NCBI GenBank assembly: GCA_964016885.1
Contig: OZ024741.1
Coordinates: 348,874,001-348,938,000 of the forward strand
DNA: 64,000 nt
Reading direction: 5' to 3'
Source: Eledone cirrhosa
Lineage: Eukaryota
Shown here: one piece after another, positions 7,481-64,000 of the stretch
Numbering within the stretch: the first letter of the stretch is position 1
How the letters are laid out: every line of letters starts with the position of its first letter
Made by a program: the position numbers and the translations under genes
Notes under the pieces: model-generated
What the model saw: the letters and a program-made list of their open reading frames with translations, nothing else
Told to the model about the DNA's origin: nothing
Database searches by the model: none

Positions 7481-7879
7481 ATTATATATTTATATATATA
7501 TATATATATATATATATACAAGTGGAAGCTTAGTAAAATCGAAGCTTTGACTGTGGCCAAGCAAAGCCGACCTACAATAAGGAATGAGTAGCAAAGCATT
7601 CAATAAGGGTAGGTCCATTTCGTTTAAAAACTTGACAAATTAAAAATTGTGGTAGGCAAAACCCAACCATACATTACCAAAAACAACGAAAGAACTAATC
7701 ACAACGATTATTATTACTATATATATATATATCTGTGTGTGTGTGTGTGTGTGTGTGTGTGTGTGTAGAGGTTATATTTGATTTGTTGGGATTCAACAAG
7801 CTTAAAAAATGTTATAATTGATATAAAGCACTCAACAATGAGTGGAGTAAATATACAATATATTAATAAATGGAATAAT

Positions 7880-7945
7880 TATTTTATTATATATATTTCA
7901 AGGGCGACCGAGGTAAATTATGGTGCGCTTTCATCAGATAAAATA
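7880..7945 (-). ncRNA. Minimal type I hammerhead ribozyme
   Basis: TATTTTAT-CTGATGA-AAGCGCACC..GGTCGCCCTT-GAAA-TATATA-TA/ATAAAATA: 8-bp perfect stem I, intact core, palindromic stem III, AUA site; lies in an element (7765-8018) homologous to 11726-12066. Confidence 0.8.
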
Positions 7946-8959
7946 CAGATTTGTTTTATAAGTAAATATTGACATACCCGGAAAAAAGACAACCTCAACG
8001 GTTGAAATTCGCTGGATAGTATATATATATATATATATATGTATGTATGTATGTATGTATATATATATATATATATATATATATATATATATATATATAT
8101 ATATATATATATATATATATATATATATATATACATACATATATATATATACATACATATATATATATATATATATATATATATATATATATATATATAT
8201 ATATATATATATATATATATATATATATATATATACATGTATATATAATTAGGTAGTAATATATGCTGATAATGCCCAATTGTTGCATATGGATCAGCGA
8301 AACTGCGTAGTCGGGACTTTGATGAAAAAATAGGTTATAATTTTGTCTATTAGTTCCTCTTCCTCTTATTTTGTAATTTGATATATATTTGAGTGTGGGG
8401 GGGCGTGTGTGTGTGCGTGTGGGTGTGTGTTTGTGTTAGTGTGGGTGTATTTGTATATTTACGAACATTTTACATATTGGAAGCAAAACTCTTTCTCTGT
8501 ATGATCTAATGTCTATGAATCAGGTATAAATCTATATATCGACATATGCATGTGTAGGGATGTAAAAACATGTGTGTGTCCATACCTATTTGGTTTCATG
8601 TAGGAGGGGTTTTAGAAAATAACTTGTGTAATTCTTTAAATTTCTGTAATTGATTTAAAATCCCCTCAATCAAAAAACATAGTGCATTTGTAGTATTAGC
8701 AAGTCAAATTAACTTATTGCTATATAATATATATATGTAACATATATATATATATATATATATATATATATATATATATATATATATATATATATATTGT
8801 TATACTTTGGGAGGGTCATGTTGCCAATAAGAAACACACGCACCAGTTGCTTTCACTTCAATTTATTATATATTTATAAATTTATAAATTTACAAATCTA
8901 CAAACTTATAAATTTCTGGTTGGTTGGTTGGTTCCACAACCAGATAGTTGTTTAAATAT

Positions 8960-9004
8960 AGTTATAGTCCTTTCGTCACACACTCTGTGACCTCTTCAGT
9001 GACT
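8960..9004 (-). ncRNA. Degenerate hammerhead motif in the 3' region of a PLE
   Basis: AGTCA-CTGAAGA-GGTCACAGAGTGTGTGAC-GAAA-GGAC-TA/TAACT; one mismatch in stem I. Confidence 0.45.
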
Positions 9005-9199
9005 GGGGATTCCTTTCTTTATTTCTGTGCCTTTCCTTTCTTCTGTCCTACGCCATTTTGTTTCTGTGTGTGTTTTGTGTGTGCAGTTTGCGCATGCGCC
9101 ACATCCGGGAGTCTGTGTATGTTTGTGTTCATTTATCTATTTGTTTATTTATTTACATGTTGTTGGTTGGTTGATTGTTCTATGTGTGTGTGTGTTTTC

Positions 9200-10115
9200 A
9201 TTTTGTCCTTAATTGTAAGTTGTGATGTTGCTGTTCTACTCATATTTTCTATTTAATTTTGGTTGTAATTCTTTTATGCTTACTGCCTCTGTAATTTGCC
9301 TAAACATTGCATCTTTTCTGTGTGGATTCTATTTTTATTTCTATGTTCTCTAATTTACCCTTGTGTTCTATCTTAGCATGTTGGTAGAGTACAGATGATT
9401 CTTTATTATCTTGAAGGTCTCGCCAGTGTTCATTTATCCGTTCCCCTATACTACGAGCTGTCTCACCTATGTACACTATATTTTTGCTTCTACATTGTCC
9501 TTCAGTACATCTCATGCTATACACTACATTTCTAGTTTTACAGTTAATATGGGGGCTTATTTTACAGGTTATACATTTCTTATCTATACATGAGGGTCTT
9601 TGGAACGGGTATGTCTTGCTAATAAGTGTTTTTATGGAGGTACCTGGTCTTTCTACTATCTTAATATTGAGTTTATGTTTATTTAGGGCCCTTCTAAATT
9701 TGTAGGCTAGTTCGCCTCTAGGGGTTGTATTGATGAACATTACACTCTGGTATTTATTGCTATCATACCATGAGTTTGTTCTATTGGCCTTGTTCCTAGT
9801 TCTTTCTATTCTATTCCAAAATTTGCTCCTATACAAGGGGCAGGTCCCGTTTATGTCATATTTACCATTTTTTCCCATTTGGTTCTGGCTCCTCTATACA
9901 CTCTGATTCTATCTCTCTGATTGTAGCCAGAGAACTGCATACGGTGGATGAAGTGTTGTATGTGTCTCTCTAGTTCTTCGGGGTTGCACATGCGGGACAC
10001 ATTTCTCATCACCCGTACCAAATCCGCAATCAGTATGTTGATTTTGGTATGGTCCGAAATGGCCGAGTTTCGGTGGATCAGATGTTTGGAAGTCATGGGT
10101 TTGGCATAATGGGAA
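9200..10115 (-). pseudogene. 5'-truncated Penelope-like element (RT thumb, Cys-rich linker, GIY-YIG; Nematis/Neptune-like)
   Basis: ORFs 9851-10096 (HFIHRMQFSGY) and 9300-9878 (FINTTPRGELA, IVERPG, CxxxxCxxC, NVVYSMRC..VYIGETARSIGERINEH) joined by a frameshift; 3' region runs to (TA)n near 8795. Confidence 0.85.
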
Positions 10116-10224
10116 TTATGCCAAACCCATTACATTATGAAGAGCTCAATGTAATCCAAATATCATGAAAAGAGAGGATGCATTCAAAAATTTTCGATAA
10201 AAATCATAGGAAAGCAGAGTCAAG

Positions 10225-10366
10225 ATAAATTAATAAAAACAATGAAATAAAAACAAAGAACAAGTTCCTTATATTTAAAAATTCCTCGGAAAAGATCGTA
10301 AAATGATGAATTTTTAATATAAGGAACTTGTTCTTCGTTTTTATTTCATTATTTTTATTAATTTAT
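10225..10366. repeat. Fold-back mini-element; same family as 31518-31600
   Basis: ~55-bp inverted arms; shares GATCGTAAAATGATGAAT..TAATATAAGGAACTTGTTCTT with 31527-31570, where GAAA-CGATCG-TA (3' half of an HHR) is intact. Confidence 0.7.
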
Positions 10367-10649
10367 ATATATATATTTATGAAAATGTGTGAAATCTTTG
10401 GTACTGTTAGGTATATTTGAAAAAAGGAAAAGAATGGCTTCAATTTTATATTATAATTTTGCTTGTAAAATTATATTATAAAATTAAATCAAATTGTTTA
10501 GAACTACAAGCGAAGTCATTCTTTTCCTTTCTTCAAATATATATATATATATATATATATATATATATATATATATATATATATATATATATATATATAT
10601 AGAGAGAGAGAGAGAGAGAGAGAGAGAGAGAGAGAGAGAGAGAGAGAGA

Positions 10650-62498: not shown

Positions 62499-62610
62499 GG
62501 AATAACCCCTTGATAAGCTCGGCTATTTAAATACCAGAATAAATTTTCATTAAGTCCAGAATTAGCCGTCGAAACGGCTTGAGCTCAGCCGTCGGGGTCT
62601 TACTTGTTCC
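62499..62610 (+). ncRNA. pLTR hammerhead (U3-A8 variant), copy 3
   Basis: GGAATA-ACCCC-TTGATAA(62510-16)..GAAA(62571-74)-CGGCT-TGAGCTC-AGCCG-TC(62593)/GGGGT-CTTACT-TGTTCC. Confidence 0.75.
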
Positions 62611-62787
62611 TATTACCCACTCTACTACCCTAAGTATTGAGTACTTTGGTGCGTTGTGGTCCACCTGGTTCTTCACCACATTTCCTTCGTTATATATATA
62701 TATATATATATATATATATATATATATATATATATATAATATAAAGTTAAATAAAAGTCAAATGATTAAAATTTAGCTTCGTTTATT

Positions 62788-62842
62788 ACTGCTATATATA
62801 TTTCAGTGACAGCCATCTTTGGCTGTGACCTCTTCAGGCAGT
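62788..62842 (-). ncRNA. Minimal type I hammerhead ribozyme
   Basis: ACTGC-CTGAAGA-GGTCACAGCC-AAAGAT-GGCTGTCACT-GAAA-TATATA-TA/GCAGT; perfect stem I, 9/10-bp stem II; in a ~255-nt island between (TA)n tracts. Confidence 0.88.
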
Positions 62843-63020
62843 TTGAATTAGTATGGTATAGACAAGTACATATGTTGTTTAGGTGTATGATATTGTCAAT
62901 ACTCTGATATGCCCAGTTCCTTGCTGGGTTGTTAATTCACTGGGGAACTGGAGTCATATGTTGGTATACAACCAACATAAACTCAAAATCTATATATATA
63001 TATATATATATATATATATA

Positions 63021-63635
63021 TCATAAAACATGTCTATAGAATCACCAGATAAAATATATACCATTTCCTCTCCCAATTAGTATAATTAACCATATAAAAA
63101 ATCGAATACACCAGGCTATAAGAATAAGGCTTCTATGAAGAAATCTCCAACAAATAACCGAAACTAGCCCTTCGCGTCGGCTGCGACGGAATATTTATCG
63201 AATATTTCGACAGCGTAATCGCCCAGATATACAGTCAATTAAACAGAATTAGGTGTAAAATAAACTAGGAGAAAAGAGAATACATTTATTTAATATAGAT
63301 GTATTCTCTTTTCTCCTAGTTTATTTTACACCTATCTATTTAATTGACTGTATATCTGGGCGATTACGCTGTCGAAATATTCGATAAATATTCCGTCGCA
63401 GCCGACGCGAAGGGCTAGTTTCGGTTATTTGTTGGAGATTTCTTCATAGAAGCCTTATACTTATAGCCTGGTCTATTCGATTTTTTATATGGTTGATCAT
63501 GCTAATTGGAAGAGGAAATGGTATATATTTTATCTGGTGATTCTATAGACATGTTTTATGATATATAGCTCTGATTATTTAATTTATTAACTTTTCATTG
63601 AGCCACAAAGTGACCCGTTGCAAAACACGCATATG
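63021..63635 (+). mobile_element. Fold-back derivative of the 691-nt unit family (centre ~63290, plus tail)
   Basis: Inverted arms 63021-63285 / 63299-63562; closely related to 55524-56070. Confidence 0.85.
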
Positions 63636-63723
63636 TATATATGTATATATATATATATTTATATATATATGTAGACCTTTATATGTATATATATATATAT
63701 GTATGTATATAATTGTGACAGAC

Positions 63724-63771
63724 GCAGATACTTAAGTTTCGTTGGGTTTAATACCAACTTATTCAGTCTGC
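63724..63771 (-). ncRNA. Minimal hammerhead-like motif with an 8-nt core strand
   Basis: GCAGA-CTGAATAA-GTTGG..CCAAC-GAAA-CTTAAG-TA/TCTGC; perfect stems I and II; adjacent inverted fragment reads CTGAATGAGTTGG. Confidence 0.65.
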
Positions 63772-64000
63772 CATATGGTACACTGAATGAGTTGGTGTTA
63801 AATATATATACTAAGTATGTTGAAAACGTGTTCGGCTTTATTTCTCAGCGTGGTATATAATGACCTTCGAGCGATGAATATGTGCAGTGTGGAGCTGCAT
63901 ACATTCATATACATGTATAGTTTTGGCGAGCCTACGGGTTGAGTCGTTTTCAGTAAGAAGAGGTGATGTGCTTCTTACTTGACGCAATTTCATTTCGCCT

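Follow-up and report, generated by a model that had tools for sequence, protein, structure and literature searches.

Hammerhead ribozymes in Penelope-like elements (PLEs), the U3-A8 variant of their core, PLEs of the Hydra clade in Octopus, and non-LTR (long terminal repeat) retrozymes with their origin from PLEs have all been published. A dimer-type hammerhead with a palindromic stem III was described, as was the U3-A8 core, in PMC4209133, and a model with circular RNA as the template is found there and in PMC7229834. Hydra elements are defined in PMC8557442 by a reverse transcriptase (RT) followed by a GIY-YIG endonuclease (EN), by the motifs RWK, DKT, CxCx5C, CxxC and CxH, by a hammerhead and by (TA)n targets; its supplement gives a hammerhead and a (TA)n preference for Hydra-1_Obim of Octopus, and a partial tandem, an inverted truncated copy and a one-sided tail are the signature of PLE insertion in that paper. 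Here we set against these systems a 64,000-nt stretch of the Eledone cirrhosa genome (contig OZ024741.1, positions 348,874,001 to 348,938,000; hereafter the window), for which an initial annotation had named 14 type I hammerhead sites, most of them in retrozymes without open reading frames (ORFs), and a Naiad-type PLE as helper. To our minds, it is highly probable that the window holds 5'-truncated 3' ends of coding Hydra- and Neptune-type PLEs together with ORF-less units of retrozyme type, likely moved in trans by Hydra-type enzymes.

Elements of both kinds have been described before, most sites named in the initial annotation are ordinary ends of truncated PLEs, and the families of the window may already be in Repbase or Dfam as Penelope or unknown repeats. 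The enzyme that mobilises animal retrozymes and the role of hammerheads in PLEs are, however, open questions in those sections of the cited papers that we draw on, and a PLE footprint on ORF-less units, present in thousands of young copies beside Hydra elements with long ORFs, makes both of them testable. One family (H) offers in addition a hammerhead with a U3-A8 core that is predicted to fold as a monomer.

Hammerhead motifs in the window and in the genome

With a strict type I descriptor the window gave 8 matches against 0.2 in 60 dinucleotide shuffles made in 500-nt blocks, and a relaxed scan (score of at least 11, the scoring having been fixed after the window had been seen) gave 13, where 100 shuffles averaged 0.21 and never exceeded 2. 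Since shuffles yield far fewer motifs than observed, chance can be rejected as their source, and the initial annotation was right to see an excess of type I folds. Ten of its 14 sites were recovered by the relaxed scan (7880, 11956, 28922, 45326, 46017, 46461, 46836, 60664, 62499, 62788), with 28922 found despite a core of CCGATGA in which U4 is changed, and the remaining four turned out to be damaged or marginal. Thus, 8960 has a mismatch in stem I that is not present in 5 other copies, 57111 has one in stem III, the core at 63724 reads CTGAATAA where that of its family reads CTGAATGA, and at 11021 stems I and III are imperfect in 20/20 copies examined; all four nevertheless fall in hammerhead-bearing families. 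Both scans picked up 3 further hammerheads at 33531-34616 that had been overlooked. Stems III are mostly short palindromes. Rfam gave 101 matches to the window at E<=5, all of them microsatellite or hairpin artefacts and none a hammerhead. The claim of about nine unrelated families has to be reduced, as the families at 7880/11956 (A) and 28922 (A2) are related Hydra families, 66% alike over 1.4 kb, and B and B2 (below) align throughout their unit.

Two further groups of motifs belong here. The tip at 63724 represents an older family (G) whose 8-nt core CTGAATGA, with one extra base, is conserved across the family (loci L171-L190) and whose parent element was not recovered from 20 loci:

63711..63812, minus strand: family G tip; the window copy carries G8A

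Another hammerhead-like family (CTGAAGA...GAAACGATCGTA), truncated at stem I in the window (31416-31570, plus strand, and 10289-10380), has intact relatives in the genome sample (L257, L261, L285).

For that sample we took 76 evenly spaced 10-kb blocks from chromosome-scale contigs (760 kb of a 3.0-Gb genome) and counted motifs scoring at least 12. There were 78, or 1.03 per 10 kb, against 0-1 per 600 kb and 0-2 per 160 kb in the shuffled sample, which extrapolates to ~310,000 hammerhead motifs (bootstrap 200,000-430,000, one block contributing 10 from a single array). The first 60 blocks alone hold 28 sequence clusters of motifs. With 2.0 motifs per 10 kb compared with 1.0 in the sample, the window was rejected as an exceptional region. 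Published counts, made with differing descriptors, exceed 6,000 for a coral and are close to 5,000 for a mussel; the axolotl has 126,247 and the giant squid 235 Rfam matches. Two blocks of the sample deserve mention: L251 (G000:C3:10000001-10010000) contains another ORF-less hammerhead unit, of 467 nt, which folds 9.8 standard deviations (SD) below shuffles, and L258 (G000:C3:255000001-255010000) carries 556-nt units, related to family D, in an array at least 10 units long.

Coding elements and their 3' ends

From 20-30 top loci fetched per family, some of them extended, 9/14 sites were found to be 3' ends of coding PLEs: three in a Hydra element (family E), five in four truncated Hydra families and one in a Neptune-type family. 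That most sites are ORF-less did not hold up, since these nine belong to families whose longer copies enter a PLE ORF, the window copies themselves being short. The features concerned are:

57111..62692, unstranded: family E, PLE that fits the Hydra clade; direct pseudo-LTRs (pLTRs) 3553 bp apart, broken RT-EN ORF on the minus strand, inverted truncated arm with a ~80-nt tail
near 57211, 60764 (minus strand) and 62510 (plus strand): family E hammerheads, U3-A8 core TTGATAA
7767..8019, minus strand: family A, 3' end left by 5' truncation of a coding Hydra PLE; intact hammerhead, core 7937, predicted cut after 7888
11729..12069, unstranded: family A fold-back; intact plus-strand hammerhead, core 11964; second arm without stem I; longer end on the left arm
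28772..31370, unstranded: family A2 fold-back of AT-rich arms from the 3' untranslated region (UTR) of a coding Hydra family (L295-L297); core 28967 on the minus strand, U4C
62744..62990, minus strand: family F, 3' end, truncated on its 5' side, from a Hydra family that is young and coding (L299, L300); intact hammerhead 62837
8797..10130, minus strand: family I, 5'-truncated PLE of Neptune type by its motifs; GIY-YIG ORF 9300-9893, Cx4CxxC linker; hammerhead 8999 with the stem I mismatch
10649..11180, unstranded: family J fold-back formed by two 3' ends, in inverted orientation, from a coding Hydra family; hammerhead marginal, with cores at 11027 (plus strand) and 10811 (minus strand)
15795..15986, unstranded: Hydra fold-back tip like family E (about 89% alike); 3' half of a hammerhead only

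Upstream of the hammerheads of families J (11021), A2 (28922), F (62788) and A (7880, 11956) lies an AT-rich UTR of 1-1.5 kb and, further upstream, a Hydra EN, and in J, A2 and A the RT is reached as well. Longer copies of A (L094/L337, L338) run through 1.2-1.45 kb of such UTR into Hydra EN/RT, and for J one locus (L292) covers the whole ORF region and two (L293/L294) have open RT-EN frames. At 8960 the motif sits downstream of a Neptune-type endonuclease within the window itself. Of the traits looked for in a Neptune PLE (a C-terminal EN with a Cx2-5CxxC linker and CCHH), motifs are visible in this fragment without the RT core, its match to GIY_YIG_2 is weak and below cut-off, and its assignment as Neptune type comes from the motifs in PMC8557442 rather than from a tree. 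A second Hydra-type PLE remnant, much decayed and with RT and endonuclease pieces in several frames, occupies 2750-4950 on the minus strand.

Family E is the element that had been labelled Naiad-type. Its ORF runs on the minus strand from about 60490 to 58360 and encodes RT and then the GIY-YIG domain, an order (RT motifs ahead of YIG) shared by the window copy and its relatives. RWR and DKT are present in the window copy; a relative (L426) shows DKT, CNCPDRSSC, CNLC, CKH and one Cys between the GIY- and YIG-like motifs, and database homologs with 42-45% identity also carry the full Hydra motif set. Hammerheads sit in the pLTRs and the target is (TA)n. With a single ORF, RT followed by C-terminal GIY-YIG and no CCHH, the family has what defines Hydra, and by these motifs and by-eye comparison with Hydra-1_Obim rather than by a tree it fits the Hydra clade. 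A Pfam search assigned no family to two Hydra ORF pieces. Nematis, considered on account of the linker, was dropped since the published Hydra motifs fit.

By contrast, Naiads are described as having an N-terminal endonuclease, DKA and no canonical hammerhead, and those of cephalopods as remnants (PMC8557442). Domain order, motifs (DKT rather than DKA, along with RWR, CxCx5C, CxxC and CxH) and hammerheads in the pLTRs all fit Hydra instead, so that a Naiad at 57111-62692 was rejected. We hence find it barely credible that the window is mostly ORF-less retrozymes served by a Naiad: ORF-less families do exist, and Naiads favour (TA)n with Octopus among the hosts given in the PMC8557442 supplement, but most sites have coding parents, and the refutation applies to 57111-62692, no search for Naiads elsewhere in the genome having been made.

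The ORF of the window copy is interrupted by a stop and a frameshift and has suffered a deletion, which rules this copy out as a helper. The family could supply one, however. It has 27,437 first-look candidates in the genome, ORFs of at least 770 aa occur in about 50/150 scored relatives, and four long-frame copies stand in tandem, 3,542 bp apart; one long frame that was looked at closely is shifted at its start.

ORF-less units and their insertion footprint

Four of the 14 sites lie in ORF-less units of 688 nt, ~535 nt and ~2.1 kb, and the overlooked hammerheads at 33531-34616 add family H. In the window these families are represented by:

45026..46231, minus strand: family B, ORF-less ~690-nt unit, head-to-tail tandem; hammerheads 45401 and 46092, predicted cuts after 45331 and 46022, palindromic stem III
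55518..56091, unstranded: family B2 fold-back; the unit is ORF-less, ~660 nt long and akin to B, with a truncation downstream of the hammerhead
63015..63638, unstranded: family B2, second fold-back; truncated around the hammerhead
46662..47218, minus strand: family D, ORF-less unit of ~535 nt; hammerhead 46912 on one arm, the other arm short, inverted and beginning 8 nt past the predicted cut
33378..34916, unstranded: family H, ORF-less 568-nt unit, partial tandem and inverted arm; hammerheads 33607 and 34175 (minus strand), 34540 (plus strand)
46225..46570, unstranded: family C fold-back; hammerhead 46465 (plus strand), one complete unit elsewhere of ~2.1 kb

Cut to cut, monomers measure 688-691 nt in B (4), 540-568 nt in H (3) and 525-541 nt in D (14), and periods of 643-664 nt were seen in 8/25 B2 loci; D also forms an array of 9 units. 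There is no ATG ORF longer than 48 aa in the monomers of B, D and H, their GC content is 34-35%, and their circular folds are 2.4-6.8 SD below 12 shuffles each. First-look candidates number 2,137-3,835 for each of B, B2, D and H. H hammerheads have a U3-A8 core (TTGAAAA) with long stems I and III, and both minus-strand motifs are predicted as a three-way junction at minimum energy when folded as monomers. In C, no PLE protein match was found in the 1.9 kb read of the complete unit (L311, part confirmed by L335 and L336); this ~2.1-kb unit has an internal repeated GC-richer segment, part of which is inverted just upstream of the L311 hammerhead. Covariation, a check the initial annotation had named, was seen across 7 D-group hammerheads, where two-sided compensatory changes occur in 4/15 pairs and 96% of cells are paired compared with at most 52% in slid controls, and one stem pair is compensatory between B and B2. 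Of the proposed radiation of PLE-parasitic RNAs, one part stands: a large ORF-less, hammerhead-bearing and (TA)n-targeted set with Penelope architecture exists (B, B2, D and H, with C on one complete copy).

The (TA)n adjacency, the tandems and the fold-backs with one longer arm that had been described are all seen in the window, whose internal repeats were mapped by self-BLAST, and with overlapping duplicate loci dropped, each family has two fixed 3' ends, which counted from the predicted cut are 295 and ~420 in B, 289 and 399 in B2, 155 and 298 in H, and 68 and ~188 in D. As many as 129/144 arm 3' ends adjoin (TA)n or (CT)n versus 1,531/15,200 random positions (10%), an adjacency inflated by our use of top-scoring matches, which favours clean ends. 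Among 49 two-armed insertions, 38 combine a short with a long end, one has two short ends, none has two long ones and 10 have one non-standard end, the long end being simply the next stretch of the unit. By eye, the coding insertions of E, A and A2 in the window share this layout, which is the PLE signature given in PMC8557442. Very short fold-backs beside (TA)n at 6209-6420, 7337-7483, 10412-10541 and 12237-12342 are probably tips of further PLE-type families.

Most arms are shorter than two units and most extend through the predicted cut site. A circle or a partly uncut multimer would have to serve as template, given that the 3' ends are internal to the cut-to-cut unit and that arms continue back across the cut. 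We envisage that a tandem copy of an ORF-less unit is transcribed and that hammerheads cut the transcript into units, mostly as dimers through the palindromic stem III and, for H, probably as a monomer; units may then be ligated to circles. A Hydra GIY-YIG endonuclease would nick (TA)n, and RT would prime at an AU-rich site inside the unit and copy more than one unit, before a second priming about 110-145 nt further along produced an inverted arm whose end is the longer one. The many short tips would stem from early termination.

A weak signal at the cut may bear on this scheme. In a first sample, H and D had an excess of 5' ends in the interval from -8 to +22 around the cut. The hazard ratio was 5.2 for H, where two of the 9 events came from a single junction, and 3.2 for D, with 6 events; it was 1.9 for B2 (p=0.09), a weak signal, and 1.4 for B (p=0.42), where no enrichment was seen. 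Among fresh loci chosen on sequence downstream of the cut alone (9/30 H loci and 2 D loci being dropped as reused), 6/21 in H (p=0.11) and 7/28 in D (p=0.05) ended near the cut, and from +1 to +10 there were 5/27 in D (p=0.004, one repeated junction dropped) and 3/21 in H (p=0.08). Since the windows around the cut were picked after the data had been seen, short arms are in any case the more frequent and AT-rich hairpins lie past the cut, we treat these ends as a lead only in the search for a trace of cleavage. Three runs of unrecorded kind gave contigs over family B without joints or end pile-ups and are uninformative on expression or cutting.

Could the ORF-less units instead be mobilised from linear transcripts, uncut or partly cut, with the hammerhead mainly trimming the 5' end and no need for circles? 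The modest excess of D and H ends just past the cut, as if RT ran off a cleaved 5' end, and the prevalence of arms below two units are what one would then expect. Arrays of 9-10 units exist, however, most arms cross the cut site, B shows no such excess, that of B2 and of the second H sample falls short of significance, and AT-rich hairpins by the cut could account for the signal, so that we regard linear templates as unlikely. Less likely still, indeed very unlikely, is that every family goes back to fragments (pLTRs or internal deletions) of autonomous PLEs, amplified as passive debris or satellites without a separate retrozyme cycle, the case in which the initial annotation would fail altogether. 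This does hold for 9/14 sites, covering most but not all families; local tandem expansion has been suggested for retrozymes derived from pLTRs (bioRxiv 10.64898/2026.07.22.740005), and one H arm of ~1.9 units directly abuts, in the same direction, a Hydra ORF that breaks off within the endonuclease (L044, G000:C7:30205827-30209389). But that junction, a template switch or a deletion, is mid-unit and mid-endonuclease; B, B2, D and H form self-closing units of constant period at numerous scattered loci, copies of B and H being 93-99% identical, and have their own microsatellite-bounded ends; D-group stems covary; and 0/48 B and 0/78 D hammerheads were tied to an ORF, albeit in an insensitive test that missed J and F.

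Our preferred reading, ORF-less units moved in trans by Hydra-type enzymes beside truncated coding PLEs, has its own difficulties, to which the inflated microsatellite adjacency noted above belongs. The case for a Hydra helper comes from the footprint, since no significant sequence match links B, D, H and the other ORF-less units to the 3' regions of the 7 coding families compared, out of many more in the genome. Neptune-type elements too adjoin (TA)n in E. cirrhosa, and the coverage of the 760-kb sample by protein probes (~32 kb Hydra, ~3 kb Neptune-like) was obtained with 10 Hydra and 2 Neptune-like proteins, a set that favours Hydra. Because the coding-link test missed J and F, C (with its one complete unit) and G could have coding parents, and because D sequences were picked by a structure scan and are related by descent, their covariation supports rather than proves selection. 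On the RNA side, self-cleavage and circles of the ORF-less units are predictions from DNA; minimal hammerheads of PLEs cleave poorly (PMC4209133), and 8/9 Xenopus retrozyme dimers tested did not cleave in vitro (bioRxiv 10.64898/2026.07.22.740005).

As for junctions that a shared helper might leave, 6 with another family were found in 217 arms, 3 of them with TA between. The three direct chimeras (B-C in the window, H-Hydra in L044, H-B2 in L382) could be deletions; in the first of these the 5' end of the B tandem meets the family C arm at 46225-46231 via a short shared word, with no TA between. Only tentatively, and as a rather doubtful proposition when taken whole, do we raise the possibility that this is the densest animal hammerhead load counted (about one per 10 kb, ~300,000), in which a Hydra RT primes twice, at fixed sites about 110-145 nt apart, on ribozyme-processed RNA and stops preferentially at the cut, the copies being a fossil record of in vivo cleavage and PLE-driven mobilisation.

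Other features of the window and comparison with known systems

Beyond the hammerhead families, the window contains an intronless alpha-2 adrenergic-like G-protein-coupled receptor gene (39977-42064, plus strand; 87% identical to the Octopus sinensis and 82% to the Argonauta receptor, which marks the host as an octopod) and a recent-looking long interspersed nuclear element (16481-21934, plus strand) with ORF1 and an open 1152-aa ORF2 (endonuclease, RT, zf-RVT) between (TTA)n tracts. Fragments and stacked RT elements with a C-terminal restriction-like motif, which we take to be Dong/R4-like, lie beside (TACA)n and (TAA)n at 23016-26700 (plus strand) and 48239-53701 (minus strand). One abundant short repeat, in inverted and direct copies (146-552, 877-1473, 6031-6157, 13802-13979, 35393-35929), is presumably an octopus OK-type short interspersed nuclear element.

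With described Hydra, the coding elements share the order of RT and GIY-YIG, RW[K/R], DKT, CxCx5C, CxxC, CxH, a hammerhead near the 3' end and the (TA)n target, as well as partial tandems, a truncated copy in inverted orientation and a one-sided tail. They differ in forming many families in the E. cirrhosa genome rather than one, in units of up to ~3.5 kb or more with AT-rich 3' UTRs of 1-1.5 kb (described Hydra are <3 kb), and in tails of about 80-145 nt where PLE insertions are described with 30-40 bp. Family E also departs from the Hydra-1_Obim motif by its U3-A8 core and its long stem III. Among Chlamys PLEs, the non-autonomous ones, of which MRC1 is an example (PMC8557442), are likewise ORF-less, with pLTRs and head-to-tail insertions; their 3' ends resemble those of autonomous partners, unlike here, and most Chlamys lack canonical hammerheads according to that paper. 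On cephalopod hammerheads or retrozymes we found nothing beyond Craig et al. (PMC8557442) and the squid Rfam count; a 2026 paper on Octopus vulgaris repeats reports 31 recently active Penelope-like families, and the word 'ribozyme' is absent from the text we had of it.

The published PLE-hammerhead survey shares with our data palindromic stems III, an additional base ahead of stem II, a multitude of families in each genome, motifs that mostly stand alone and come from truncated PLEs, pairs in inverted orientation, the U3-A8 variant and the circle-template model. Our estimate (~300,000) is above its 2,000-9,000 per genome and the 126,247 of axolotl, a rough comparison given that descriptors differ. 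Closest to the ORF-less units are the metazoan non-LTR retrozymes (PMC7229834; bioRxiv 10.64898/2026.07.22.740005), neither of which has a cephalopod in its main text. In these, 21/57 Xenopus families match PLEs, and we found no pLTR homology with 7 coding families for units known here from DNA alone. Their units are ~170-400 nt in tested invertebrates and 51-972 bp in a vertebrate survey, those here 535-690 nt, and in the available text of PMC7229834 'microsatellite' and 'inverted' have 0 occurrences, whereas microsatellite targeting and two-armed insertions mark the units here. Both, however, are ORF-less, low-GC tandem units with one type I hammerhead per unit that fold better than shuffles, and PLEs have been proposed as the carriers of retrozymes too; hence, the ORF-less units of E. 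cirrhosa are, by their sequence features, of the non-LTR retrozyme type in a microsatellite-targeted, two-armed variant.

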